Source of the DNA: an uncultured virus (IMG/VR IMGVR_UViG_3300027828_000003)
Taxonomy: Duplodnaviria > Heunggongvirae > Uroviricota > Caudoviricetes
Strand: one strand, 5' to 3'
Length of the DNA: 20,000 nucleotides
IMG/VR virus record: IMGVR_UViG_3300027828_000003
In this document: positions 2,222 through 16,744 of the stretch, piece after piece
How positions within the stretch are numbered: the first letter of the stretch is position 1
Layout: each line of letters opens with the position of its first letter
Translations under genes and position numbers: made by a program
Notes under the pieces: generated by a model
What the model was told of the DNA's origin: nothing
What the model saw: the letters and a program-made list of their open reading frames with translations, nothing else
Database searches by the model: none

Positions 2222-2807
2222 TATTATCAGCAATCTAGCGGCCATCCTGCATCCGTTGTAAACCGGGCGATCTGGCGCGGCGCGAAATTTTTTTGAAAAA
2301 AAATGCACGGGCTGGTTGCGGTTTTTGTGGGGCGAAGGCCGGGGGCGATCGTATGGGGCGCGTATATATAAGGGCTATGTGTAGGCCTATGGATAGGGCT
2401 GATGTTATGGGCGCCGGGTGTATGGGTAGCGGTATGCCTAGTCGGGCTGTAGGGCTTCCAGGGTTGCGCCTGGCTGAGGGGCGAGGAAACGGACCGGCGA
2501 AAATCTCAAGGCGCTATGCGCGCGGCGGGCGGCGGGCCTGTGTGGGTTTAGGTTGTGATCCATGGGCGATCCATGCCCAGCTGGCACGTAGGCGGCTGCG
2601 CACCCACGGCCCGAGCGAACGGCGCAATAAACTATCAGCTTTTTATAAATATTATTTCAATTGGAGAGTATTAAATATGAATCCAGTTTAAGAAAGAGTG
2701 ACACCCTACCCCCCTTCCCTGTCAAGAGACCGCGACCAAATCTCACAGCTCTTTGCTCTACCCAGGTCCAAACCGAGAGATAGTCGGCGACACCACAACT
2801 AGGTGTG

Positions 2808-2886
2808 ACGACTTGAACGACTTGAAACGACTTGCAGATCGCCACTATTGCCTCGGTTATGAGAAAGATACATAAATAGCGACTTG
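2808..2886 (+). repeat. Short direct repeats CGACTTG x4 upstream of terS
   Basis: ACGACTTG at 2808, 2817 and 2827; CGACTTG at 2880. Confidence 0.7.
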
Positions 2887-2900
2887 TTTATGGCGGCGTA

Positions 2901-2915
2901 ATGAGAGGGACTCAT
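2901..2915. promoter_or_regulatory. Operator-like palindrome ATGAG-AGGGA-CTCAT overlapping the terS RBS and start
   Basis: Exact ATGAG-N5-CTCAT match. Confidence 0.6.
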
Positions 2916-3579
2916 GTCTCTCTCGCTGGACCGGAGGAACGGCACGCGCGTGGGAAAGGGTCAGCCGGTGGCTGAGAACTCAGACAGCCCTATGGAAGGC
3001 AAACTGGTATGCGGAGCGAAGACCAGGAGCGGCGGCACCTGTCAGAAACCGCCTATCAAGGGGAAAAAGCGGTGTCGTCTTCATGGCGGCGCCAGCAACA
3101 ACCCTGCGCCGAAGGGCAACACCCGCGCTCTCAAGCACGGCCTCTACAGCTCGGTCATATCCGACGAGGAAAAGCGGCTTTGGGAACACATCGAGCTCGG
3201 CACGATCGACGACGAGCTTCGACTGGCTCGGGTCAAGCTACGACGCCTGTTGGCCTTCGAGAACGCCCAGAACACGCCCCAGGACGCCGGTGGGGCGACG
3301 AATTCGTCTCGAAAAGGCATGACGCTCGAGGAAGTCCGCGTCTTGACCGACGGCCGCAGCCGGCAAACCGAGATGGTTCAACGCCGAGTCGATTACACAC
3401 CAGAGATCCGCGGCTTACTCAAAACGATCGGCGATCTCGAGAAAACGCGCGCGGCAATCGGAACCGGAGCGGACGACCCGGAAACGATGGCCAGAAAGGT
3501 CCAGGACGCATTGCACGCGATTCATCTGATCCAGGAAGGAATACCGGTTGGACCCGATGAGGCATATGAGGCCGCTTGA
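2914..3579 (+). CDS. terS: Terminase small subunit (HGGxSTG-type N-terminal domain)
   Basis: CGAKTRSG..C..RCRLHGGAS and GNTRALKHGLYS motifs; lies directly before terL with an overlapping TGATG. Confidence 0.88.
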   Translation: MSLSLDRRNGTRVGKGQPVAENSDSPMEGKLVCGAKTRSGGTCQKPPIKGKKRCRLHGGASNNPAPKGNTRALKHGLYSSVISDEEKRLWEHIELGTIDDELRLARVKLRRLLAFENAQNTPQDAGGATNSSRKGMTLEEVRVLTDGRSRQTEMVQRRVDYTPEIRGLLKTIGDLEKTRAAIGTGADDPETMARKVQDALHAIHLIQEGIPVGPDEAYEAA

Positions 3580-4937
3580 TGCAGCCGCCAGACGCTTTTC
3601 TGACCGCGCAGCAGAAGGCAGCTATGGCGACGCTTGGGCCGCGGTGGTACCCACTGCGGCAGCATCCTGTTCAACTGCGGCTTTGGAACGACGACTACCG
3701 ATTCAAGGTCGTCCCGGCCGGCCGGCGTTCGGGCAAGACCGAGAACGCCAAACGCCGCATTGTGAACTGCGCCATTCGATCAAATCGGTACGGAAACGCC
3801 AGGTTCTTCGCCGCGGCGCCGACTTGGGCCCAGGCCAAACGCATCTTCTGGGCCGATCTGAAGGCGATGGTGCCGAAATGGCTGCTTGCCGGCGCGCCGT
3901 CGGAAGGCGAGCTGACGATCAGGCTCAACACCGGCTCGGAAATCTGCGTTTTCGGCATGGACAAGCCGGAACGCATCGAGGGTTCACCTTGGGATGGCGG
4001 CGTCCTCGACGAATACGCCAACATGAAGGAACAAGCCTGGGGGGCGCACGTCCGCCCTGCCCTCTCGGATCGCCGCGGCTGGTGTTGGCTGACCGGCGTC
4101 CCGGAAGGCCGCAACCACTACTACGACATCTACAAACGGGCCCAGGCCGACACGACCGGCGAATGGGGACACTACACCTGGAAATCGTCCGAAGTTCTGC
4201 CGCTTTCAGAAATCGAAGCGGCGCGAAAGGACCTCGACGAACTGACCTTCCTGCAGGAATACGAAGCGAGTTTCGTCAACTTCCTGGGTCAGGCCTACTA
4301 TTCGTTCGACGACAAAATTCATTGCGCGCCTCTGACGTACCGGCCGGACGATCTGATCGTCTTCTGCTTCGACTTCAACGTGGCGCCGGGCATAGCTGCG
4401 ATCTGCCAGGAGCAGCACTTGCCGTCCGGTCAGTACGGCACAGGCGTGATCGGCGAAGTTCACATCCCACAACATTCGAACACGGTTCGGGTCTGCAACC
4501 GATTAATTCAGGATTGGGGGCACCATCGCGGGAAAATCCTCTGCTACGGCGACGCATCCGGCGGCGCGGGTGGCAGTGCGAAGGTAGCCGGCTCGGACTG
4601 GGACCTGGTCCGAAAGACGCTCAAAGAGAAGTTCGGCGATCGGCTCGATTTTCGGGTGCCGTCCGCCAACCCGTCGGAACGCGCCCGCATCAACGCGGTC
4701 AACACGCGACTGAAGTCGATAAGCGGCGAGGTTCGTCTGATGGTCGATCCACGATTTGCACCGAATGTCGTCATCGACTTCGAGGGTGTGCGCCTCGTCA
4801 AGGGTGGTTCGGGCGAGATCGACAAGAAAGCCACCCCGAAGCTGACGCATGTCACCGACGCGATCGGCTACTACGTCTTCTACGAATTCCCGGTCATCAA
4901 ACAAACGGCGACGCAAGCCACCATCATCGGAGTCTGA
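3579..4937 (+). CDS. terL: Terminase large subunit
   Basis: Walker A AGRRSGKT, Walker B GVLDE, coupling motif LTGVPEG, nuclease motifs CFDFN and HVTDAIGY. ATG at 3579 is coupled to the terS stop. Confidence 0.96.
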   Translation: MQPPDAFLTAQQKAAMATLGPRWYPLRQHPVQLRLWNDDYRFKVVPAGRRSGKTENAKRRIVNCAIRSNRYGNARFFAAAPTWAQAKRIFWADLKAMVPKWLLAGAPSEGELTIRLNTGSEICVFGMDKPERIEGSPWDGGVLDEYANMKEQAWGAHVRPALSDRRGWCWLTGVPEGRNHYYDIYKRAQADTTGEWGHYTWKSSEVLPLSEIEAARKDLDELTFLQEYEASFVNFLGQAYYSFDDKIHCAPLTYRPDDLIVFCFDFNVAPGIAAICQEQHLPSGQYGTGVIGEVHIPQHSNTVRVCNRLIQDWGHHRGKILCYGDASGGAGGSAKVAGSDWDLVRKTLKEKFGDRLDFRVPSANPSERARINAVNTRLKSISGEVRLMVDPRFAPNVVIDFEGVRLVKGGSGEIDKKATPKLTHVTDAIGYYVFYEFPVIKQTATQATIIGV

Positions 4938-4941
4938 TCCA

Positions 4942-6372
4942 ATGCCGGTAAACACCCCCCACAACGAGTATTTGGCGAACAAACCAGATTGGGAACTCAT
5001 GCGCGACGCCATCGCCGGCGAACGCACCATCAAGGAACGCGGCACGACCTACTTGCCCAAACTGTCGGGCCAGACCGACGAGGAATACAACGCCTATAGG
5101 ACCCGGGCGATGTTCTTCGGCGCGACCGGTCGCACCCATGACGGCTTGCTCGGCGCGGTATTCCGCAAAGCGCCGAGCTACGAACTGCCGAGCCGCATCG
5201 ACGCTATCGCGAAGGATGCCGATCTGAATGGCACGCCGCTCGAAATGCTCGCCGTGTCGCTCGTCTCTGAAATTCTCGGCGTCGGCCGCGTCGCGATTCT
5301 GACAGATTGGCCTGAGAATCCGGTTGCCGAGCAAGCCAGGCCATACCTCTCCCTCTACTTGACCGAACAGATCACCAACTGGCGCACGCGAGTGATTAAC
5401 GATGTTCCGGTCCTCGACCAAGTCATTCTCTACGAAACCACCGACGAGCCCGCAGAAGACGGCTATGGCACGGTCGTCAAGCAGAACTATCGTGTCCTGA
5501 AACTCGACGACACTTCCGGATCCCTCGTGTACACGGTCGAAATCTGGGAGAAAATGAAGGAAAAGGAGGAATGGTTCCTTTCCGAGACGCACATTCCGAC
5601 CCACCGTGGCAAACCACTCGACTGGATACCGATCACCATTTTCTCACCGCACGATCTGTCGCCGAAAGTCGAAAAGCCGCCACTGCTCGACCTGGCCACC
5701 GTTAACGTCTCGCACTACCGGACCTCCGCCGACCTGGAACATGGTTGCCACTGGACGGCGATCCCGACGCCTTGGGTCTCTGGTCTCACCGACCACACCA
5801 CGACCTTACACGTCGGCGGGCAAACGGCATGGGTGCTGCCGGAAAACGCTCAAGCTGGCATGCTCGAGTTCACCGGAACCGGCCTTGCGGCGCTCGAAAA
5901 GCGTCTTCAGGAGAAACAGGCGAATATGGCCCGTTTGGGCGCTCGGCTCCTGGAAGACCAAAAGCGCGCCGCCGAGACCGAGGGATCGAAGCGCCTGGAC
6001 TATTCCGGCGACAATTCAGTCCTAGCCTCCGTGGCGAACGCTGCGAGCGAAGGCTTAACGCGAAACCTCAACTGGGCCAACTATTGGGCCGGCGGCGGCG
6101 AGGAAGAGGTCGAGTTCGCGGTCAACAAGGACTTCTTCGACAACCCGCTCGGGGCGCAGGATGTGCTTCACCTTGTCGCCGCATGGCAATCCGGCGGACT
6201 GCCGCGATCGGCGCTCTACTGGAACCTGCATCAGGGCGAGCGGCTGCCTCCCGACATGACGGAGGATGAATTCGTTCGCCAGATCGAACAGGAAGGGCCG
6301 GCACTCGGTACGATCGGCGAGAACGACGAGGACGATCCTGAACCGTCGCCGGACCCAATCGAAGACGAATAG
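4942..6372 (+). CDS. Portal protein (DUF4055-like)
   Basis: Follows terL; YLPK..YNAYRTRAMF and PPLLDLATVNVSHY..SADLEH motifs; acidic tail. GGAG RBS favours ATG 4942 over 4849. Confidence 0.9.
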   Translation: MPVNTPHNEYLANKPDWELMRDAIAGERTIKERGTTYLPKLSGQTDEEYNAYRTRAMFFGATGRTHDGLLGAVFRKAPSYELPSRIDAIAKDADLNGTPLEMLAVSLVSEILGVGRVAILTDWPENPVAEQARPYLSLYLTEQITNWRTRVINDVPVLDQVILYETTDEPAEDGYGTVVKQNYRVLKLDDTSGSLVYTVEIWEKMKEKEEWFLSETHIPTHRGKPLDWIPITIFSPHDLSPKVEKPPLLDLATVNVSHYRTSADLEHGCHWTAIPTPWVSGLTDHTTTLHVGGQTAWVLPENAQAGMLEFTGTGLAALEKRLQEKQANMARLGARLLEDQKRAAETEGSKRLDYSGDNSVLASVANAASEGLTRNLNWANYWAGGGEEEVEFAVNKDFFDNPLGAQDVLHLVAAWQSGGLPRSALYWNLHQGERLPPDMTEDEFVRQIEQEGPALGTIGENDEDDPEPSPDPIEDE

Positions 6373-6380
6373 GACCGATC

Positions 6381-6827
6381 ATGACCTATGCTCGGGACCA
6401 ATTCACCGGCAACATTATTGCGCTCGACTTCTTCTCGACGTTCTGCGGAGATTTGATCTCGAAGGGCACAGCGAGGGAGGTCTACGTCTATGCGCCAGAC
6501 CCGCGATACGTCGTGAAAATCGAAGTCGCCGCCAAGAGCTTCCAGAACATGCGGGAATGGGAGTTCTGGCGCGATTTCAATTTCGTCGACGACATCGCCA
6601 AATGGCTGGCGCCATGCAAGAGCATAAGTCCCTCCGGGATCATTCTCATTCAGCGGCGCACCAAGCCGATACCTGCCCACCGGTATCCCGATCGTCTGCC
6701 CCAATTCCTGACCGACATCAAACGAGAAAATTTCGGACTTATCGGCAACAGAGTGGTTGCCCACGACTATGGACGAGTTGTGACTTCGGCCCCAACCACC
6801 GCCCGGAAAGCGCTTTGGAGGTACTAG
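6381..6827 (+). CDS. Miniature protein-kinase-like (PKL fold) protein
   Basis: Ordered motifs ISKGTAREVY (Gly loop), YVVKI (Lys), QNMREW (alphaC Glu), TDIKRENFG (catalytic loop), VAHDYG (DFG-like); AGGA RBS. Confidence 0.78.
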   Translation: MTYARDQFTGNIIALDFFSTFCGDLISKGTAREVYVYAPDPRYVVKIEVAAKSFQNMREWEFWRDFNFVDDIAKWLAPCKSISPSGIILIQRRTKPIPAHRYPDRLPQFLTDIKRENFGLIGNRVVAHDYGRVVTSAPTTARKALWRY

Positions 6828-7901
6828 ATGCCCCAATCCCTGAACGAAGAACTGCTCGACGCCGTTGTCCGCCATCAGATCTACCTTCAGCGATACTCCA
6901 CGAGCGTCGTTCGGAAGATCATCAAACTCCTGAACAAGACGGATGCCGACATCGTCTCCCAGATCCTTGAGAAAGACCCGCTGAACCAAAACGGCACTTG
7001 GTCGGCCCGGCGCCTGAAAGCCCTGCTCAATGCGATCCGCGGCATCAACCGGGACGCCTTCAATCGGGTCGAGAACGCCGTCAGGTCGGAATTGACGGCC
7101 GCGGCCGCCTACGAGGCAGACTTTTCCGCCCGTATGATCACGCTCAACCTGCCGGTCGAGTTCAACATCGTGCAGCCTTCTGAAGAGCTTTTGGCAACGG
7201 TTGTGACCAAGAACCCCATCCACGGCCAATTGATCGGCGGATGGGTCGATCACCTGAGCAACAGCCGCATTCGCTCGATCGAGCAACAGCTTAGGATCGG
7301 CCTCGTCGAGGGCGAGACAATCGATCAGCTCGTCCGGCGCCTGCGCGGGACCAAAGCACGACAGTATCGCGATGGCGTGCTCGATCTCGGCCGCCGGCAC
7401 GCCGAGTCCTTCGTTAGAACCGCGGTCAACCATGCAACGACACAAGCCCGCGAAGCACTTTACGGCCACAACCGAGACCTCATCAAAAAAGTGAAATGGG
7501 TATCGACGCTCGATTCCCGCACCACACCTATCTGCCGGGCCCGGGACGGCAAACTGTTCGAAGTCGACAAAGGCCCACGACCGCCGGCGCATCCTGGATG
7601 CCGGTCCACGACCGTCCCGATCGTGCCAAGTTGGCGTGAACTCGGGTTCGACCTGGATGAACTCGACCCCGGCACGCGCGCGAGCATGAACGGCCAGGTT
7701 CCGGCCGATCTGACCTATGGCCCATGGTTGAAGCGGCAGCCGACGGAATTCGTCGAAGACGTTCTCGGCAAGACAAAGGCGAAACTGTTCCTCAAGGGAG
7801 AACTGCCCATCGACCGCTTCGTCGACGATCGGGGATTCGAACTGACCTTGGATCAGTTACGGCAGCGCGAGGCGGCAGCTTTCGCGAAAGCGGGCCTGTA
7901 A
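6828..7901 (+). CDS. Minor head morphogenesis protein (SPP1 gp7 / Mu F family)
   Basis: VRTAVNH, KWVSTLDSRTTPICRARDG and PPAHPGCRST motifs; typical position after the portal. Confidence 0.92.
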   Translation: MPQSLNEELLDAVVRHQIYLQRYSTSVVRKIIKLLNKTDADIVSQILEKDPLNQNGTWSARRLKALLNAIRGINRDAFNRVENAVRSELTAAAAYEADFSARMITLNLPVEFNIVQPSEELLATVVTKNPIHGQLIGGWVDHLSNSRIRSIEQQLRIGLVEGETIDQLVRRLRGTKARQYRDGVLDLGRRHAESFVRTAVNHATTQAREALYGHNRDLIKKVKWVSTLDSRTTPICRARDGKLFEVDKGPRPPAHPGCRSTTVPIVPSWRELGFDLDELDPGTRASMNGQVPADLTYGPWLKRQPTEFVEDVLGKTKAKLFLKGELPIDRFVDDRGFELTLDQLRQREAAAFAKAGL

Positions 7902-7996
7902 CGACGGCGATCAACGACAAGTAATGATTTACTGTGAACGACTATGAGTAACGTCAATATTACTTGGATCGACTTTGTCGACTTTGCATGAGATTC

Positions 7997-8024
7997 TTGC
8001 ATATGGATCGAATTCGGGTATTAT
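7997..8024 (+). promoter_or_regulatory. Putative sigma70 promoter TTGCAT-N16-TATTAT
   Basis: -10 ends 9 nt before ATG 8034, which has no SD, so the mRNA would be near-leaderless. Confidence 0.5.
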
Positions 8025-8033
8025 TCCCGCGTC

Positions 8034-8285
8034 ATGGAAGGCTCACACAATCGTCTCACGATCATTCGAGGCGGTTGCCAGGGGAAGCCTTACGCGAGAC
8101 GGACGAAAGGGGAAGCTGAACAACTGGTATGCCGAACTTGCGAACACGACATTGGTGTCGCTACTTCGGAATGGCTGGAAATTCAGATTGCCCCCATGAT
8201 CCAAGGGAACGAAGTGAAACCCGGTACGCCAGGTTTGATCTGCGTTCACTGCCTGTCTCGCGGAAAGGTAACGCGGGCGACATGA
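8034..8285 (+). CDS. Small putative zinc-binding protein (CxxC...CxxC)
   Basis: CRTC and CVHC pairs in 83 aa; fills the gap between MuF and the tRNA. Confidence 0.65.
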   Translation: MEGSHNRLTIIRGGCQGKPYARRTKGEAEQLVCRTCEHDIGVATSEWLEIQIAPMIQGNEVKPGTPGLICVHCLSRGKVTRAT

Positions 8286-8301
8286 CTTTTTTTGCAACAG
8301 G

Positions 8302-8320
8302 AAATGAGTAAAACTCATTT
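8302..8320. promoter_or_regulatory. Operator-like palindrome AAATGAGT-AAA-ACTCATTT
   Basis: Perfect 8-bp inverted repeat ending 5 nt before the tRNA; core ATGAG-N5-CTCAT. Confidence 0.65.
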
Positions 8321-8325
8321 ATTGT

Positions 8326-8402
8326 AGCGGGTTGGCGCAGTCTGGTAGCGCGGTTGGCTCATTACCAACAGGACGTCGGTTCGAATCCGACACCCGCCCC
8401 CA
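8326..8402 (+). tRNA. tRNA with CAT anticodon (Met/fMet/Ile2-like), CCA encoded
   Basis: Cloverleaf: acceptor AGCGGGT/ACCCGCC, D stem GCGC/GCGC, anticodon stem GTTGG/CCAAC with loop CTCATTA, T arm GTCGG-TTCGAAT-CCGAC, then C-CCA. Confidence 0.92.
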
Positions 8403-8513
8403 ATGCCAGAGAGAGGCCGTCCGGCGCGTCCCACACATATTCGGGCCGTCGGGCGGCCAAATATCTAAACAAAGACCATCGCGGCGCGATGGCATCTAAG
8501 CCGGAGGCGGACC

Positions 8514-9311
8514 ATGAAGCTTAAACCGACCATCAAGGATCTCTCGGAAGTCGACGAAAAGTATCGCGACCTCTACGTCGAAACCGACGGGGGTTATGTG
8601 CTCGAAGTCGAAGGGATGGTCGATCGCGCGAAAGTGGCCGAATTCCGCGACAACAACATCAAACTTCAGAAAGACCTGACCGACACGCAGGAAAAGCTGA
8701 CCGCGTTGAGCGCCAAGTTCGAAGGCATCGACCCGGAAAAGATCAAGGAACTTCAGGAAACCGAAGCCAAACTCCGCGACAAGCAGTTGATCGACGCCGG
8801 CCGCGTGGACGAATTGATCGACATGAAGCTCGCCGAACAGCGGAAGAACTTCCAGAAGGACTTGGCCCAGCGCGACGAAACGATCGGCAACCTGACCAAA
8901 GAACGCGACGAATCACGCGGCACCGTGAAACGCCTGCACGTCGAGAAAGTCGTCGGAGACGCCGCTCTCAAACACGGCGTTCGTGAAGGCGCGTTGGATG
9001 ACGTCTTCAATCATGCTCATGCCTACGGCTTCGATCTCGCCGAAGACGGCAACGACGTCGTCATCAAGGGTCCGAGCGGAGATCCGCGCCGCTCTTTGTC
9101 GGACCCGAGCAAAACAATGTCGGTGGAGGAATACTTCAACGACGTTCTCGCCGAGTCCAAGCCCTTCTACTTCAAGGAGAGCGCGGGCGGTGGCAGCAAG
9201 GGTGGCGGCGGCGGCCCGGCGGGTCGGCGTGTCAGCTTGTCTGACTCTGGCGCCATCAACGCAAACATCGAAGGCATCGCGTCCGGGAAAGTCCAAGTCT
9301 CCGACAACTAG
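8514..9311 (+). CDS. Capsid scaffolding protein
   Basis: GGAGG RBS; charged coiled coil, Gly-rich FKESAGGGSKGGGG, C-terminal IEGIASGKV; directly upstream of the capsid gene. Confidence 0.85.
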   Translation: MKLKPTIKDLSEVDEKYRDLYVETDGGYVLEVEGMVDRAKVAEFRDNNIKLQKDLTDTQEKLTALSAKFEGIDPEKIKELQETEAKLRDKQLIDAGRVDELIDMKLAEQRKNFQKDLAQRDETIGNLTKERDESRGTVKRLHVEKVVGDAALKHGVREGALDDVFNHAHAYGFDLAEDGNDVVIKGPSGDPRRSLSDPSKTMSVEEYFNDVLAESKPFYFKESAGGGSKGGGGGPAGRRVSLSDSGAINANIEGIASGKVQVSDN

Positions 9312-9412
9312 CCTTCCTTCAGCGCATCCGGCGGCTGCGCTAGTCCGGACCCGGTGGGTCCAATTCACCTGAAAACTGACCTCCCACCGGGGTCGAACTA
9401 GGAGTATTGGCT

Positions 9413-10582
9413 ATGTCCAACACCATTACCGCCATCATGCCGAAAATCCTTGCGCGCGGCCTTCTGGCCCTTCGCGAGCGCGTTGTCATGCCGCGCCTCG
9501 TCAACGGCGATTACTCCGCCGAGGCGGCGCAGAAAGGCGCGACCATCGACGTCCCGTACAGCCAGTCCAAGACGGCCAAGGACGTCACGCCGAGCAACAC
9601 GGATCCGGCCGCGGACAATTCCGAGCCGAAGTTCGTGCAGATCACGCTCGACCACTGGAAGCACTCCGACTTCCATCTGACCGACAAGGAAATGGCCCAG
9701 ATCGACGCCAACGAGCACTTCATCCCGCTCGAAATGCAGGAATCGATCAACGCGCTGGCCACCTTCGTCAACGCCACCATCCTCGCCGAGTACAAGGGCG
9801 TCTACGGCTACGCCGGTACCGCCGGCACCACGCCGTTCGGCGGCTCCGGTGACGCGGCTGGCGTCAAGGGTGCGACCCTGGCTCGGAAAGTTCTGAACGA
9901 GCAGAAAGCGCCGCTTGCCTCCCGGTTCGGCGTTCTCGACTTCACGGCGGAAGCTGAAGCCCTTGGCCTGTCTGCCTTCTCCGACGCCGAGAAGATCGGT
10001 TCCAACGGGGTCAAGATCGAGGGTGAAATCGGTCGGAAGTACGGCATCCAGTGGACGGCCGACGACCAGGTCCCGACGCACGTCGCCGGTACCATCACGA
10101 CCGGCCTCGTGGCCAAGGCCGCGACTGCCCAGGCAGTCGGCCTCAAGGCGATCGTCTGCACCACCGCGGCTTCCACCGGCGCCTGTGCGCTGAAGGAAGG
10201 CGACATCGTCACTTTTGCCGGCGACAGCCAGACCTACGTGCTGACTGCCGACGCGACGCAGGCCTCCGCGGCGACCGATGTCACGTTGAACATCGAGCCG
10301 GGCCTGAAGATCGCGCTTGCCGGCGGTGAGGACGTCTCCGTCAAGGGCGATCACGTCGTCAACATCGTGGCACACCGGGACGCCTTCGCTTTCGCGCAGC
10401 GCCCGTTGCTCACGGAATCCGACGGACTCGGCTCCCGGATCATGACCATGACCGATCCGATGACCGGCATCTCGCTCCGGCTGGAAGTCACCCGTCAGTA
10501 CAAGCAGACTGTGTGGGATCTCGACATCCTGTTCGGCGCAAAACTGGTTCGTCGCGAGTTGGCCACCCGCCTCGCCGGGTAG
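9413..10582 (+). CDS. Major capsid protein (P22 coat-like HK97 fold with insertion domain)
   Basis: GGAG RBS; GATIDVP, HRDAFAFAQRPL and DILFGAKLVRRELA motifs; strong codon bias; followed by a terminator. Confidence 0.92.
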   Translation: MSNTITAIMPKILARGLLALRERVVMPRLVNGDYSAEAAQKGATIDVPYSQSKTAKDVTPSNTDPAADNSEPKFVQITLDHWKHSDFHLTDKEMAQIDANEHFIPLEMQESINALATFVNATILAEYKGVYGYAGTAGTTPFGGSGDAAGVKGATLARKVLNEQKAPLASRFGVLDFTAEAEALGLSAFSDAEKIGSNGVKIEGEIGRKYGIQWTADDQVPTHVAGTITTGLVAKAATAQAVGLKAIVCTTAASTGACALKEGDIVTFAGDSQTYVLTADATQASAATDVTLNIEPGLKIALAGGEDVSVKGDHVVNIVAHRDAFAFAQRPLLTESDGLGSRIMTMTDPMTGISLRLEVTRQYKQTVWDLDILFGAKLVRRELATRLAG

Positions 10583-10609
10583 GTCTATCCGTCCTCGCGA
10601 CGTTGCATG

Positions 10610-10644
10610 GGGAGGCGGCGTCAAAACCGCCTCCCTTTTCTCTT
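10610..10644 (+). terminator. Rho-independent terminator after the capsid gene
   Basis: GGGAGGCGG/CCGCCTCCC stem followed by TTTTCTCTT. Confidence 0.85.
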
Positions 10645-10671
10645 CCAACTGCAACATAAGGGAACAGGATT

Positions 10672-11289
10672 ATGCGTCTCCCCACCTATCGACTTCGTCA
10701 TCGGAAGACGAAGGAAATCCGTGTCGTCAATCAGACCGACTATCAGGCCAACCTGTCGAAGTTCTCCGATTACGAACGGATCGGCGAAACACGCGGCGAA
10801 GGCAACGAGATGATCGAAGTTTCGGGCGTCTCGACCGAACCGCCGGCCGGCGGCGAAGTGTTGGCGAACCTTGCGACCTTCGTGACGAAGGCCAAACAGG
10901 ACAACGACCTCGACGACGACGGTTGGGCTGCGCTCACCCAGGGCGAACGCGACGCCCTTATCCTGAAGGCCATGCAGCCCCAGACGACCGATGGCGCCCC
11001 GTCGCCGACGCCCACCACCGAAGAGCAACCGGCGCCCTCGTCGACCGAAACCGGAAACGCCGGTGAAGGCGATGACGGAAAGGCCGATGCTGACACGACC
11101 GACATCCGCGCCAAGATCGACGCGGAATGCGAGGACAAACGCGCGATCGAGGCCCGCATCCTTGAGGACTTCAAGGAAGACACCGACCTTCGCGTCTACA
11201 ACACGCGCGACAAGCTGCTTGATCGCTACGTCGAACTGCACACCGCGGCGGCCGCCAAGGCGGCTGAAGCCGGTCAGCAGACCGCGTAA
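10672..11289 (+). CDS. Hypothetical acidic, linker-rich protein (probably head-associated)
   Basis: AGGA RBS; phage-like codon usage; position after the capsid gene. Confidence 0.75.
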   Translation: MRLPTYRLRHRKTKEIRVVNQTDYQANLSKFSDYERIGETRGEGNEMIEVSGVSTEPPAGGEVLANLATFVTKAKQDNDLDDDGWAALTQGERDALILKAMQPQTTDGAPSPTPTTEEQPAPSSTETGNAGEGDDGKADADTTDIRAKIDAECEDKRAIEARILEDFKEDTDLRVYNTRDKLLDRYVELHTAAAAKAAEAGQQTA

Positions 11290-12112: not shown

Positions 12113-12619
12113 ATGTTCGCTGTCGAAGACGGTACCGGCGTTGCTGGTGCCAATTCATACGTGTCGCTTGCCGACGCGGACACATACTTCGCTGACCGGT
12201 CGAACTCGACGTGGGCAGCTCTTGACAACACCGTGAAACAGAAAGGCCTCCTGGACGCCACCGAGTACGTTGGGAGCCTCTACCGCGGTTCTTGGCTCGG
12301 CAGCCTCTATTCGACTGAGCAAGGCTTGGATTGGCCGCGTGTCGGCGCCTACGACCCGGAAGGTCGACCGCTTGATGGCGTACCGAAGGATCTACAAGCC
12401 GCGATCTGCCGCTTGGCGCTCGAATCAGCGACGAATGGCGATCTGGTCACGTCCCAGGACCGTGGCGGCCAGGTCAAACGGGAGAAGATCGGCCCGATCG
12501 AAACGGAATACGCCGATGGCGCACCGGCTGGTCGGACCTTCCCGTATCTCGACGATCTCCTGAGCAGCCTCGTCACCGGCAACCGCCGCGGCATGGTCGT
12601 GACGCTTCAGCGGCGATGA
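12113..12619 (+). CDS. Head-tail adaptor (DnaT-like family)
   Basis: VEDGTG..ANSYVS..ADTYF, QGLDWPR and EKIGPIETEY motifs. Confidence 0.88.
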   Translation: MFAVEDGTGVAGANSYVSLADADTYFADRSNSTWAALDNTVKQKGLLDATEYVGSLYRGSWLGSLYSTEQGLDWPRVGAYDPEGRPLDGVPKDLQAAICRLALESATNGDLVTSQDRGGQVKREKIGPIETEYADGAPAGRTFPYLDDLLSSLVTGNRRGMVVTLQRR

Positions 12620-12978
12620 ACAAAGCTCAAATCGCGGCGAAGGTCGAAGCAGCCTTCAACAAGCTGGGCGATCTTGCCTACAACGCGACGCTGACCAAGA
12701 AGACGCAGGGAACCTATAATCCCGGCGTCCTGGCGGCTTCGCAGACCGAAACGACATCGACCGGAAAACTCCTGTTCGACGAGGCCAGGATCAAACAGGC
12801 GGACTATCTCGCCGGCGCCAACATCAAACCGAGCGACGAAGTAGCTTTTCTGCAAGGCGTGTCTTTCGCGCCGGAGAAAGGTCACACGATCGACATCACT
12901 GGCATCGGCACCAAGGACATCATCTGGGCGAACGATTTGATGCGCTTGGGGGCGCTTTTCGTGGTCGTCCTGCGATGA
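12616..12978 (+). CDS. Head closure / head-tail joining protein
   Basis: ATGA-coupled to the adaptor; size and synteny; GTYNP motif. Confidence 0.7.
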   Translation: MNKAQIAAKVEAAFNKLGDLAYNATLTKKTQGTYNPGVLAASQTETTSTGKLLFDEARIKQADYLAGANIKPSDEVAFLQGVSFAPEKGHTIDITGIGTKDIIWANDLMRLGALFVVVLR

Positions 12979-13427
12979 CTGGCCGGTTCGAAACCAGACT
13001 GAGGATATTCGCCGACAAGGCAATGGCGAACGTCGATCTCGTTTTTCGGAAGGCGACGTTCGAAATCTATTCCCGCGTCATCATGCGGACACCGGTCGAT
13101 ACCGGTCGGGCGCGCGGCAACTGGCAGACAGCCGCCGACGCCTACCCGACGGGCGTCACGCTCACGGACGACAAAGGAAGCGTCAACCAATCGGGCCGCG
13201 GCAACAGCGTCGCAAAAAGCGCAATGGAGTCGACCGTCCTGTCTGGCCCGTATCAGCGGAAATTCGTTCTGCTCAACAACGTCCCGTACATCGGCGTTCT
13301 CGAGTACGGGCGCGAAAGTGGTGCCCCCGGCAGCATGCAGGCGCCGGCCGGCATGGTCCGCGTCACGATCGCGGAATTTCAGGCCCTCGTCGAGAAAGCG
13401 GGCGGCGAAGTGATCCGGAACAACTAA
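12975..13427 (+). CDS. Neck / tail-completion protein (HK97 gp10-like)
   Basis: RTPVDTGRARGNW, NNVPYIGVLEYG and QAPAGMVR motifs. Confidence 0.88.
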   Translation: MTGRFETRLRIFADKAMANVDLVFRKATFEIYSRVIMRTPVDTGRARGNWQTAADAYPTGVTLTDDKGSVNQSGRGNSVAKSAMESTVLSGPYQRKFVLLNNVPYIGVLEYGRESGAPGSMQAPAGMVRVTIAEFQALVEKAGGEVIRNN

Positions 13428-14206: not shown

Positions 14207-16744
14207 ATGGCCATTCTGGATGACCTTGGTTTGACGCCGGAGATAGCGGTTTCCATCACCCGCTATCTTGTGGCCAGTTACACCGGACCAACCGTCCGGC
14301 TGGAAGACGCTGGCGCGAACCAAGCCGACTTCTACCCCGATGGTCTAGGCGGCATTGCACAAGGGTCTTCTCTTGGCGATGCCCCTTCGGTTTGGGGGAC
14401 CGCACCGTTCTCTATCGTCACGCTCTATGAACAGTCCAATGGCCGTGACTTCGATGTCGCCGTAAACGCTGGCGTCCTCGTGGATGATGTTCATCCCGCA
14501 GGGCTTTGGGGGGCTACCGGTCTTCAAATGGAAACCGGGACCGCTATCGACATGATCGCGAACGAAAGCGACAGTCGCGTCATTTCAGGCGTCGTTATGA
14601 ACAACGGCGATATTACGCCCCCCGGCGGTTCGGTAATATTCTTCGGGCAATCCGTAGCAAGTTTGGCTGGTTTGCATTTTGATTATTTTGACGAACTTGA
14701 CGGTACGCCCGCTAATAAAATTCGGGGCAAAGTTGTTGGCGATAGTGGTGCACCAATTGCCGTAGGCGCTGATCTTGTCGCGGAAGGCAACACCGTCGTT
14801 TTTCAAGCGTTGAAGCCTCATGCCGGGACTAGCAGCGACGTTAATGCTTGGACTGTAGACGACATCGAGTTGTACACCGAAGATGCTCTAGACGCTCAAG
14901 TTCTCGTCGCTGATGGCGCTAGATGGGATTTTCGTGTCTTCGATTGGACGATCCGAACGCAAATTGCGGACGCCGACGAAGACTTCGTATTCTTTGAAGG
15001 CGTCGTTCTTCGCAGTAGTTCTGATATTTCCGACGCTACCCGTTCCGCCTTGGCGCAAGACCAGATGGCGTACTATGAAACGCGAGATTATGTGCCAGGT
15101 AGCGGAGGGACAAATCTTACAACAAGCCAAGAACGATCCACCGCCATTGCCCTGTCCCTCGCGACCGCGAAAACCATCGGTGCCGCTGCCGAGGTAGATG
15201 TATCAATAGCTCTATCGAAAGGGCTTGCTACAGACCTTGGCATAGCGACGGAAACAGCCGTTGCGCTGCCTTTGACGACAAAGACGGCCAGGACGCTCCT
15301 TACTGCGCTCGAAGCCGATGCGGCTGGCGATCTGGCGCTTGCGGTCGCCAAGGCATTGGGTGGCGCCGCGGAAACGGATCAGGCGGCCGCCCTAGACACG
15401 AGCGAAGCTCTGACCTTGCAGCCTGCGACGGAGGTAAACCGGGCCCTGACGCTGCTGGCCGGTCTGTTCCTGGGCACGGCAACCGACAACGAGACGGCCA
15501 TCCCGTTGTCGACCGCGACTATCCGAACGCTTGGATTGGTGAGCGAAGCGGAAAACGCTCTGCCGATCACGCTTGCAGCTGCCAAGACCCTCGGGATCGC
15601 TGGCGACGAGGAAGCCGCGCTCGTTCTGAGCAGACCTACGATCAAAACACTGCTTGCGGCTGCGGCAGTGGACTTCGCGGTCATGCTCAGTCGTGGAACG
15701 GCCTTGAACCTGTCAACCGCGGTGGAAGAGGACGCAGCGGCGTCAATGTCCCTCGCATCGGCCCTGACGATCGTCACGGCGGCGGAAAGCAGCGACGCCA
15801 TCCTGCTTTCGCGACCGACATTGAAGAGCCTTGGTCTGGCTTCCGAGCAAAACCTCGCCATTCCACTCTCGTCGACCGAACATCTCGGGCCCTACACGAA
15901 GATCCAAAGGGCGATTGATCTGCGTCTTGCCCAATACCAGGACGAGAACGTGGCTTGGGAGAACTTCTCCTACGAGCCCAAGACTGGTACGCCTTACCTG
16001 AAGCCGTTTCTTCTACCGGCAGAACCGAACGTCTTGACCGTCGGCGTAAAGCCCTTCCTGCAGAACACCGGCATCTATCAAATCTCGGTCGTTCACCCGA
16101 TCGGTGAAGGGAAAGCGGCGGCCGTGAAGCAGGCGGACGAACTCGTCACTCACTTCAAGCGCGGTACGGTTCTGAGCCTTGGCAGCCTCACTGTTCGCAT
16201 CGACCGTTGCTGGCATGGCTCACCGCAGAAGAGCGAGGCTTGGTACGTCGTCCCGGTATCCTTCATCTGGCGCGCGGAGACGCAGGAGAGCGCTTTTCCG
16301 ATCTCCTACAACCTGGGGGCCAGCGAGACCGTCGGCGGGAACTACGAGACCATCCAGCGCGCCTTGGACAGCGTTCTGTTCCAGTATCAGAGCGAAAACG
16401 TGGCCTGGGAGAATGTCCAGTACGAGCCGACGACCGGCACGCCCTATCTGGAACCCTATTTCAATCCGAACGAGCCCACACAGGCCGAGAGGAACGCCGG
16501 CGCGGCCAACCGCATTACCGGCACCTACGAGATCATGGTCTATGGGCCTCATGGCCCCGGCAAGAAAGCGGTCATCGAGAAGGCCGACGCCATCATCAAC
16601 AAGTTTCGCGCCGGATCGACCATAAAGCTCGACGGCCGCGCGATACGCATCGAACGGGCATGGCAAGCCACTGCCGTGCCGATGGAAGCCTGGATCCAGG
16701 TTCCCGTCACCATCTTCTGGCGGGTCGACACACCCAACCAGTAG
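14207..16744 (+). CDS. Fibre-like protein fused to two tandem tail-terminator-like domains
   Basis: Globular N-terminus, 13 repeats of about 20 aa (15113-15886), then two homologous ~130-aa domains (15893-16279, 16340-16741). It occupies the tail-terminator slot before the tail tube. Confidence 0.8.
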   Translation: MAILDDLGLTPEIAVSITRYLVASYTGPTVRLEDAGANQADFYPDGLGGIAQGSSLGDAPSVWGTAPFSIVTLYEQSNGRDFDVAVNAGVLVDDVHPAGLWGATGLQMETGTAIDMIANESDSRVISGVVMNNGDITPPGGSVIFFGQSVASLAGLHFDYFDELDGTPANKIRGKVVGDSGAPIAVGADLVAEGNTVVFQALKPHAGTSSDVNAWTVDDIELYTEDALDAQVLVADGARWDFRVFDWTIRTQIADADEDFVFFEGVVLRSSSDISDATRSALAQDQMAYYETRDYVPGSGGTNLTTSQERSTAIALSLATAKTIGAAAEVDVSIALSKGLATDLGIATETAVALPLTTKTARTLLTALEADAAGDLALAVAKALGGAAETDQAAALDTSEALTLQPATEVNRALTLLAGLFLGTATDNETAIPLSTATIRTLGLVSEAENALPITLAAAKTLGIAGDEEAALVLSRPTIKTLLAAAAVDFAVMLSRGTALNLSTAVEEDAAASMSLASALTIVTAAESSDAILLSRPTLKSLGLASEQNLAIPLSSTEHLGPYTKIQRAIDLRLAQYQDENVAWENFSYEPKTGTPYLKPFLLPAEPNVLTVGVKPFLQNTGIYQISVVHPIGEGKAAAVKQADELVTHFKRGTVLSLGSLTVRIDRCWHGSPQKSEAWYVVPVSFIWRAETQESAFPISYNLGASETVGGNYETIQRALDSVLFQYQSENVAWENVQYEPTTGTPYLEPYFNPNEPTQAERNAGAANRITGTYEIMVYGPHGPGKKAVIEKADAIINKFRAGSTIKLDGRAIRIERAWQATAVPMEAWIQVPVTIFWRVDTPNQ

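Follow-up and report, generated by a model that had tools for sequence, protein, structure and literature searches.

The mini-kinase gene and its conserved parts

We analysed a stretch of 20,000 nucleotides from an uncultured virus of the Caudoviricetes (IMG/VR record IMGVR_UViG_3300027828_000003; the whole stretch is called the window below) and, within it, a small gene wedged between the portal gene and the MuF gene. The gene, referred to here as the mini-kinase, is an open reading frame (ORF) at 6381–6827 of the + strand with a stop-free translation of 148 amino acids followed by a TAG codon, and its product matches phrog_4301 (“unknown function”) at an E value (E) of 4.8e-33. An initial annotation, made from the sequence alone, had described the product as a miniature protein kinase, and the kinase motifs that it listed are all present in the translation at the places it gave: a Gly loop (K28-G-T-A-R-E-V-Y35), V44-V-K46, E59, D112-I-K-R-E-N117 and D129-Y-G131, after which 17 residues follow. 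With conserved motifs, a confidently predicted fold and structural matches to kinases, the product does appear to be a miniature protein-kinase-like (PKL) protein. It is most likely a free-standing, catalytically active mini Ser/Thr kinase whose gene is a movable accessory and, in this phage, is expressed late.

A word-indexed search returned 16 relatives of 141–159 amino acids with 43–60% identity. A profile of the mini-kinase and these relatives was searched against 1.84 billion representative proteins (50%-identity clusters) and matched 1,631 clusters at E≤1e-3, 1,121 at E≤1e-10 and 499 at E≤1e-30. Conservation was counted over the best 150 representatives, which are at most 50% identical to each other; the counts are given with each part of the protein.

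6381–6827 (+): mini-kinase ORF, member of phrog_4301 (translation, PHROG match and relatives)
6387–6443 (+): N-terminal helices, residues 3–8 and 12–21, before β1 (predicted secondary structure)
6459–6482 (+): Gly-rich ATP loop, S27-K-G29-T-A-R32-E-V34 (G29 148/150, R32 149/150, V34 142/150)
6510–6518 (+): β3, V44-V-K46, with K46 the ATP-phosphate-binding lysine (K46 150/150; predicted strand 43–48)
6546–6557 (+): start of αC, N56-M-R-E59, with E59 the salt-bridge Glu (N56 and E59 150/150; predicted helix 55–66)
6714–6731 (+): catalytic loop, D112-I-K114-R-E-N117, of the form D-x-K-x-x-N (D112 150/150, K114 125/150, N117 148/150)
6765–6773 (+): D129-Y-G131, the metal-binding equivalent of DFG, after the β7/β8 hairpin (D129 and Y130 150/150, G131 115/150)
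6774–6824 (+): basic/aromatic C-terminal tail of 17 residues in place of the activation segment and the remaining C-lobe (predicted local distance difference test, pLDDT, 61–65)

The family consensus of the Gly loop is G-x-G-x-x-R-x-V, and N56 is an invariant residue specific to the family. The β7/β8 hairpin corresponds to predicted strands 118–121 and 124–127. The N-terminal helices may be an extra element of the kind seen in RIO kinases. A basic residue (R or K) occupies position 140 of the tail in 128/150, and W is found at position 146 in 122/150. An autophosphorylation site in the tail was considered and dropped, position 138 being S or T in only 66/150.

Looking at the alignment of 17 sequences, 22 columns are invariant, including G29, R32, V34, V44, K46, N56, E59, D112, K114, N117, F118, G119, D129 and Y130. 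Across the 150 representatives K46, N56, E59, G86, D112, G119, D129 and Y130 are fully invariant, R32 (149) and G29 and N117 (148 each) are nearly so, C79 is conserved in 127, and position 114 is K in 125, H in 11 and Q in 6. Conservation of the catalytic residues in homologues, the lack of which the initial annotation had named as grounds for rejection, is found to be complete or nearly complete, and to judge from these counts the catalytic residues are under strict selection.

The short C-terminus is equally general. The tail after D-Y-G has a median of 23 residues (range 15–65) in the 150 representatives, and therefore it is a family trait and not a truncation; the substrate-binding C-lobe that had been reported as absent from the window's protein is absent family-wide. 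These representatives have a median length of 156 amino acids, 143 of them being no longer than 180, and the gene encodes 135–175 amino acids across the 72 distinct loci compared below. No fused or longer forms were found at E≤1e-5 among proteins of 434–2000 amino acids, a test that the tool itself rates as weak. The few members of 190–247 amino acids merely carry low-complexity extensions rich in Pro and Gln, except P0061 (247 amino acids), in which a hydrophobic N-terminal stretch resembling a transmembrane anchor precedes the kinase core.

Concerning cultured phages, 92 isolate records carry a relative (tblastn); 74 of them are Pseudomonas phages, largely of the M6/YuA type, with phages of Vibrio, Xanthomonas, Sphingobium, Erythrobacter, Dinoroseobacter and Pseudanabaena among the remainder. 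Among the 30 tblastn matches listed, 24 are hypothetical proteins, three have no annotation and three are named as kinases (AN14, ‘serine/threonine-protein kinase’; Lydia, ‘protein kinase’; Pan1, ‘cyclin-dependent kinase-like 5’). A second query added PAKlein3 (‘serine-threonine kinase’) and vB_Pa-PAC9 (‘structural protein’). The 150-sequence profile had 143 matches in an annotated database of 5.8 billion proteins, and the 120 of these that were listed have no Pfam domain and only the names ‘hypothetical’ or ‘uncharacterized’. A cluster look-up of seven family proteins gave one name, a hypothetical protein of Marinobacter iranensis, and the ESM Atlas neighbours are mostly viral clusters with no family name. 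A single-protein scan of bacterial genomes gave 82 pattern matches, none of them confirmed. No characterisation of the phrog_4301 family was found among open-access papers and preprints.

Predicted fold

The AlphaFold2 model, based on the 17-sequence alignment, has a pLDDT of 86.0 and a predicted template modelling score (pTM) of 0.81. It consists, in order, of two N-terminal helices, β1–β3 (K46), αC (E59), β4–β5, a short linker, the catalytic loop, the β7–β8 hairpin, DYG and the low-confidence tail; beyond residue 73 the model contains no helix as long as four residues. An independent model in the ESM Atlas has a pTM of 0.86, and its nearest named structural neighbours are APH (template modelling score, TM, 0.69) and Pkinase (TM 0.68).

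The initial annotation had named a non-PKL fold as grounds for rejection, and every structure search returned kinase-like folds. Foldseek gave 25 matches in the PDB at E≤1e-3, and the 44 matches listed comprise 42 entries named as kinases and two complexes that contain a kinase. OspG (4q5h_A, E 1e-4), NleH2 and NleH1 lead, and RIO2, PRPK/Bud32, BMPR2, PknB, AceK, HopBF1 and ordinary kinases are also found. A wide VIA-align search likewise returned kinase folds, with an alignment to RIO1 (1zp9_A) that spans model residues 1–148. In BFVD, close phage look-alikes are present (PaMx11, 142 amino acids, TM 0.85) and viral Ser/Thr kinases are more distant. Model and conservation together show the two-lobed fold and the ordered series Gly loop–Lys–Glu–D-x-x-x-x-N–Asp that characterise the PKL superfamily.

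The shortest solved chains among the matches have 159–176 residues (NleH, OspG, Ark1 and HopBF1), compared with 148 here, and the core of the mini-kinase begins only at about residue 22. The mini-kinase is shorter than every solved kinase among its structural matches.

The head module of the window

The window contains a siphovirus morphogenesis module, in which tail genes come after Neck1. The features around the mini-kinase gene are as follows.

2914–3579: TerS
3576–4937: TerL
4849–6372 (+): portal, the upstream neighbour, with the ORF as listed (phrog_145, E 2.2e-132; PF13264)
6371–6374 (+): AGGA, a Shine-Dalgarno-like site 6 nucleotides 5' of the kinase ATG and overlapping the portal stop (read from the sequence)
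6817–6821 (+): GGAGG, a Shine-Dalgarno site for MuF within the last kinase codons (read from the sequence)
6828–7901 (+): short-form MuF head-morphogenesis gene, the downstream neighbour (PF04233, E 3.1e-13; phrog_241, E 2e-144)
8326–8402 (+): tRNA-Met (anticodon CAT)
8514–9311: scaffold
9407–10582: P22-type coat
10609–10636 (+): terminator-like hairpin (10 pairs, 8 of them G-C, then a T run)
12113–12619: adaptor Ad1
12616–12978: head-closure Hc1
12975–13427: Neck1

The junctions are tight, and the coordinates confirm the position described in the initial annotation: the portal stop (TAG, 6370–6372) ends 8 nucleotides before the kinase ATG, and the kinase TAG (6825–6827) directly abuts the MuF ATG at 6828. 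With the GGAGG site inside the kinase gene, translation of MuF is probably coupled to that of the kinase. MuF covers only positions 9–365 of the 679 in the phrog_241 profile and therefore is without the C-terminal extension of its longer relatives.

A scan of 2500–10800 showed no promoter-like site on the + strand, hence none near the kinase gene, and no strong terminator-like site was seen from TerS to the end of the coat gene. Because of this, and because of the tight junctions, it is reasonable to regard the mini-kinase gene as part of a TerS-to-coat late operon, co-expressed with the head genes; the late expression that had been proposed earlier thus stands as a reasonable reading of the operon. 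The gene has a GC content of 55.5%, compared with 58–64% in its neighbours, and a GC content at third codon positions of 70.5%, compared with 66–85%. A foreign-DNA signature was therefore set aside as not diagnostic, the third-position value being inside the neighbours' range.

Some other features of the window were noted. As listed, the portal ORF shares 89 nucleotides with the end of TerL; the true portal start is probably the ATG at 4942, just past the TerL stop, because the PHROG match begins at residue 29 and this ATG is in frame. The tRNA-Met gene lies within the head module, in the 600-nucleotide gap between MuF and scaffold. The hairpin at 10609–10636 is directly 3' of the coat gene; between 2.5 and 10.8 kb the + strand has no other convincing terminator-like hairpin. 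An ORF of 845 amino acids (14207–16744, +) has a tail-terminator domain (phrog_179, E 6.7e-51) confined to residues 562–695; such a length is unusual among tail terminators, and the ORF could be a fusion. The ORFs scanned in positions 1–2900, 5' of TerS (159–1010 +, 1419–1952 −, 1897–2199 + and 2293–2691 +), have no PHROG match at E≤1e-5. No close isolate relative of the head module was found, the best match covering 10% of the query.

Position of the gene across phages

We compared 80 IMG/VR loci and three isolate loci, in which 72 different kinase sequences are represented; locus L004 duplicates the window at 100% identity. PHROGs were used to annotate the two genes that flank the kinase to the left and to the right (141 and 135 ORFs). 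The ORFs were simply the longest ones, a crude way of calling by which small genes may be overlooked or misassigned. The head, packaging and connector positions are the following (L numbers denote loci).

Directly after TerL: L002, L003, L006, L007 and L036; also L043, with the order TerL–kinase–portal
Portal/MuF junction: L004 (portal–kinase–MuF), L005 (MuF downstream only) and L011 (portal upstream only)
At or beside the Ad1/Hc1 connector genes: 11 loci, with exactly Ad1–kinase–Hc1 in L009, L010, L024 and L065
Between or beside TerS and TerL: 8 loci, with exactly TerS–kinase–TerL in L059 and L069
Before a portal-like gene: L017
Scaffold or portal two genes away: L037 and L082

A head, packaging or connector gene is the immediate neighbour in 27/72 loci and lies within two genes in 31/72 (30/71 without the window's copy). 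Genes of DNA or nucleotide metabolism are found within two genes in 19/72 by the PHROG scan and in 21/72 when the M6-type loci L001 and L022 are included, which were assigned to this group from the annotation of the M6 record. In 20/72 loci all neighbours are of no assigned function. The portal/MuF position, which the initial annotation had taken as a link to MuF that should recur as synteny in homologues, did not hold up: it is seen in only 3/72 loci, the window's own included, and in other loci the gene is at one of four further morphogenesis junctions or among replication genes. In the window the Ad1/Hc1 junction (phrog_477/phrog_161) is uninterrupted, and in relatives the same connector families flank the kinase exactly there.

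The maximum-likelihood tree of the 72 kinases requires 30 changes of context label (minimum 7, shuffled mean 42.8), and a quick tree gave 29. The well-supported branches alone require at least five origins for the Ad1/Hc1 position and at least three for TerS/TerL, and a single origin of any context group appears in 0/200 bootstrap trees, from a bootstrap that is not fully settled. The window's kinase pairs with L005, which is also beside MuF (support 96/89). The gene behaves as a movable accessory (moron-like) cassette, because its junctions are varied and its context changes repeatedly on the tree. No conserved neighbour or fusion partner was found in the 72 loci and the fusion search, which fits a stand-alone effector.

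In at least six related loci the mini-kinase also has a homing or HNH endonuclease gene no more than two genes away, and several of these endonuclease genes lie in head or terminase modules.

L010: 1400–1981
L011: 560–1207
L040: 6137–6931
L023: 3651–3986
L027: 4390–4929
L062: 2984–3532

The junctions that carry the kinase may be hot spots for mobile genes. In the Sphingobium phage Lacusarx, the gene directly upstream of the mini-kinase (gp063; L093, 1850–3475) is labelled ‘DNA transfer protein’, though it lies in the replication region beside polA.

Proposed activity and alternative functions

The residues that have no non-catalytic role are invariant across a very diverse family, and because of this we consider it highly probable that the mini-kinase is an active phosphotransferase of the PKL fold. 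That the gene encodes a free-standing, catalytically competent, ultra-minimal PKL enzyme is a claim we hold in even balance. For a protein kinase in particular the chances seem about equal either way; a protein substrate is favoured over a small molecule or RNA because of the Lys at the second position after the catalytic Asp (D+2) and because no pathway partner recurs beside the gene. A role in host takeover or anti-defence, by analogy with the T7 kinase T7K (T7 gp0.7), is a tentative possibility.

According to this reading, ATP-Mg would be bound between the N-lobe and a reduced C-lobe. The N-lobe would be normal, with five strands, αC, the G-x-G-x-x-R loop and the K46–E59 pair. The C-lobe would be reduced to the catalytic loop (D112 as base, K114, and N117 as metal ligand), the β7/β8 hairpin and the D129-Y-G metal loop, after which the short basic/aromatic tail would end the chain; there is no activation segment, P+1 loop or αF–αI helices. 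Since activation segment and docking lobe are absent, the active site would be open and unregulated, and specificity would have to come from a partner or from the tail. The enzyme would then be constitutively open, and either promiscuous or partner-dependent, in the manner of OspG, Bud32 and HopBF1. The most likely reaction would be the transfer of phosphate, within the infected cell, to Ser/Thr residues of proteins from the host or the phage, because the D+2 residue is Lys as in Ser/Thr kinases. In this phage the protein would be made late, together with the head proteins, from the TerS-to-coat operon.

Several results weigh against an active protein kinase. K114 is replaced by H or Q in 17/150 representatives, and the C-terminal tail is modelled at low confidence (pLDDT 61–65). 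The model has neither αE nor αF, the helices that scaffold the active site in known kinases, and because of this activity without a partner is not assured. Also, no sequence method links the mini-kinase significantly to a characterised kinase. In Pfam there is no family at E≤1 and no match to Pkinase (PF00069), NCBIfam gives noise only (E≥0.018), and sequence searches of the PDB return nothing significant, either with the single protein in phmmer (E≥0.065) or with two profiles (E≥0.79). Some of the non-significant PDB alignments are in register with the kinase motifs: for NleH1 and CK2alpha the Gly loop, the Lys and the Glu line up, and for AceK the stretch from the catalytic loop through D-Y.

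The alternative that survives best, though we regard it as unlikely, is that the same minimal PKL core phosphorylates a small molecule (a metabolite), a signalling nucleotide, a sugar phosphate or an RNA 2'-OH, in place of a protein. The APH match in the ESM Atlas and the structural match to Ark1 are in its favour, and with no substrate-binding lobe the protein offers little surface for docking another protein. The nucleotide-metabolism neighbours (19/72, or 21/72 with the M6-type loci) also fit, comprising a deoxynucleoside monophosphate (dNMP) phosphatase, a nucleoside triphosphate pyrophosphohydrolase, a dNMP kinase, a polynucleotide kinase, polymerase-related genes and methyltransferases, and the copies in Lacusarx and in the Erythrobacter phage vB_EliS-L02 (L02) are beside DNA polymerase I. 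A phage precedent exists in DLP3 gp82 and RB69 gp52:53, whose PKL-like C-terminal domains have been assigned as arabinose-5-phosphate kinases according to the available text of PMC13326640. However, position D+2 is Lys in 125/150 members of the present family, no glycosyltransferase, nucleotidyltransferase or phosphatase recurs as a neighbour, no fusions were found, and the gene occupies five different morphogenesis junctions in which no metabolic logic is apparent. A Lys at D+2 is usual in Ser/Thr protein kinases but not a typical feature of enzymes of the APH or choline-kinase type.

A more far-reaching version of the protein-kinase reading would make this the smallest catalytically competent protein-kinase fold known, a self-contained cassette of about 150 residues, independently evolved and moving among late-operon junctions, with its product made alongside terminase, portal, capsid and connector proteins. 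The enzyme would be unregulated and promiscuous and would blunt the host defences that these late proteins trigger, or else it would enter the capsid and be injected, to act ahead of any phage gene expression. Taken as a whole we think this distinctly unlikely.

Packaging had already been put forward as a possibility in the initial annotation. On such a reading the kinase would be made late, enter the virion by way of MuF, the portal or the DNA, and be injected to act at the start of the next infection. The place of the gene within the head operon, its probable translational coupling to MuF and the presence of a head, packaging or connector gene within two genes in 31/72 loci are in line with this. 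The protein is net basic (K+R 22, D+E 15), as many internal head proteins are, and the vB_Pa-PAC9 record carries the label ‘structural protein’, the basis of which is not known. Against this, the gene is at the portal/MuF junction in only 3/72 loci, and about 21/72 copies are among replication genes (as in M6, L02 and Lacusarx), so its function cannot depend on co-assembly with the head. Known MuF toxin cargo is reportedly at the MuF C-terminus (Jamet et al. 2017), whereas the kinase is a separate ORF upstream of MuF, neither fused to its C-terminus nor placed after it.

Two virion proteomes bear on the same question. For L02, 13 virion proteins are listed, and the family member UIS25243.1 (E 1.3e-40), whose gene adjoins DNA polymerase I, is missing from these 13 in the supplement of PMC12014285. 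For Lacusarx, 16 virion proteins are reported, and gp062, near polA, is outside all the regions in which the main text of PMC5648845 places them. Both absences are weak negative evidence, because each of the two genes belongs to a replication module and a protein present in few copies may be missed, and they are silent on phages that have the gene in the head operon. With nothing found in support of packaging and injection, and with relatives not reported in these two proteomes as far as the cited parts go, we consider the proposal very unlikely.

An ATP-driven switch or ATPase that aids assembly or packaging with no phosphorylation of a substrate is highly improbable. RIO kinases and Bud32, which act chiefly as ATPases within larger machines, provide the precedent, and the gene is often beside terminase, portal or connector genes. 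No single assembly partner is conserved, however, and replication modules hold many of the copies; the gene is missing from most phages that share these head and connector families, as illustrated by the uninterrupted Ad1/Hc1 junction of the window, and the Lys at D+2 (125/150) differs from the Ser or Thr of RIO and Bud32. Finally, a pseudokinase or pure binding module with no catalysis, which the drastic C-lobe truncation with loss of αE and αF and the Ser that E. coli YrbL seems, by eye, to carry at the catalytic-Asp position might suggest, is barely credible given catalytic residues that are, unlike those of pseudokinases, invariant or nearly so in 150 diverse representatives.

Significance

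The reading as a free-standing mini Ser/Thr kinase matters first because recent work has shown that phage kinases, T7K among them, serve as broad weapons against host defences (PMC13645617, available text). The known anti-defence phage kinases form one family, found mostly in T7-like phages; phrog_4301 would be a second, unrelated and far more widespread one. JSS1_004 is said to be another such kinase. The 74 Pseudomonas phage records include therapy-relevant Yuavirus phages of P. aeruginosa. The family has no Pfam name, PHROGs lists it under “unknown function”, and almost every record calls its product hypothetical.

Phage PKL kinases and bacterial minimal kinases were already known, and a few members had been labelled as kinases; new are the very large unnamed phage family, the extreme reduction of the kinase fold and the mobility among late-operon junctions. 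Should it prove active, the mini-kinase would be the defining example of a minimal catalytic core for the protein-kinase fold. The gene has also moved repeatedly between junctions of head and connector modules that are otherwise conserved, a clear case of an accessory gene being mobile within late operons.

Comparison with known kinase families

Concerning the Hanks-type Ser/Thr kinases (PF00069), the family shares with them the Lys at D+2 of D-x-K-x-x-N (125/150), whereas the APE activation segment, the αF Asp and αG–αI (subdomains VIII–XI) of these kinases are absent from the mini-kinase. PF00069 is not among the 25 listed of the 39 Pfam families matched by the 150 members, none of the 150 matches Pfam RIO1, and ten members scanned against the PADLOC defence models matched no family at E≤1.

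The only Pfam family matched by more than one of the 150 members is PF10707 (YrbL-PhoP_reg), with 31/150 at E≤1 and a best E of 2.5e-5 (the family cut-off is 31.5 bits). In common with the mini-kinase family, YrbL has an unusual Gly loop (G-x-G-x-x-R) and a V/I-K strand. It differs in having 210 amino acids and an extra helical region, is encoded by a chromosomal gene, and belongs to a small bacterial kinase-like family of unknown function. Membership of the YrbL family was rejected, since the mini-kinase has no PF10707 match at E≤1 and the hhalign comparison of the family profile with E. coli YrbL covers 27 columns at a probability of 11%; YrbL is kept as a distant lead and a possible distant cousin. 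Nor does PF10707 match anything in the nearest virus record (G001). E. coli K-12 YrbL (L084, 13453–14085), annotated as ‘protein kinase-like domain-containing protein’, has by eye S-L-K-P-Q-N where a kinase has D-L-K-P-x-N and may not be catalytic in the usual way. The available parts of the YrbL literature concern the PhoP regulon or a transcription pause site.

T7K and the mini-kinase are both phage-encoded PKL kinases, and T7K is a functional model for what phage kinases can do, described in the available text of PMC13645617 as a hyper-promiscuous Ser/Thr/Tyr kinase that disarms defence systems and has DPV in place of DFG. The mini-kinase family has an invariant D-Y instead (150/150). T7K also has 359 amino acids and a C-terminal shut-off/DNA-binding domain, is encoded by an early gene and occurs mostly in Autographiviridae. 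T7 gp0.7, to which the initial annotation had likened the protein, matches phrog_2828, 15752 and 18305, whereas the mini-kinase and its M6 and Pan1 homologues match phrog_4301, and hhalign aligns the mini-kinase with T7K over 26 columns, from the Gly loop to the β3 Lys, at a probability of 34%. Based on these differences in PHROGs, profile alignment and the D-Y-G motif, membership of the T7K family was rejected and the two were placed in separate families.

RIO kinases and Bud32/PRPK are atypical kinases that have no activation loop; they have 220–290 residues and full αE and αF helices, and belong to the ribosome or KEOPS machinery of archaea and eukaryotes. Their D+2 residue is Ser or Thr, in place of the Lys seen here. 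HopBF1 (6pwd, 6pwg), an effector of plant pathogens, and archaeal Ark1 (8yv5), a tRNA 2'-kinase according to the PDB entry titles, are about 25 residues longer than the mini-kinase and have no sequence link to it.

The closest structural similarity is to OspG, NleH1 and NleH2 (4q5h, 4bvu, 4lrj, 4lrk, 4o96), type III effectors that are secreted into animal cells, whereas the mini-kinase is a phage protein encoded in a head operon. Their solved chains have 159–171 residues, about 30–45 more than the mini-kinase over the same span. At the sequence level NleH1 (4lrj_A) appears at E 0.99 with one profile against PDB sequences, over the Gly loop to β3 only, and is absent with the second profile. The activity of OspG needs E2~ubiquitin (PMC11078946, available text). 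The family is thus placed in the PKL superfamily only, with OspG/NleH, RIO/Bud32 and HopBF1 as its nearest structural analogues.

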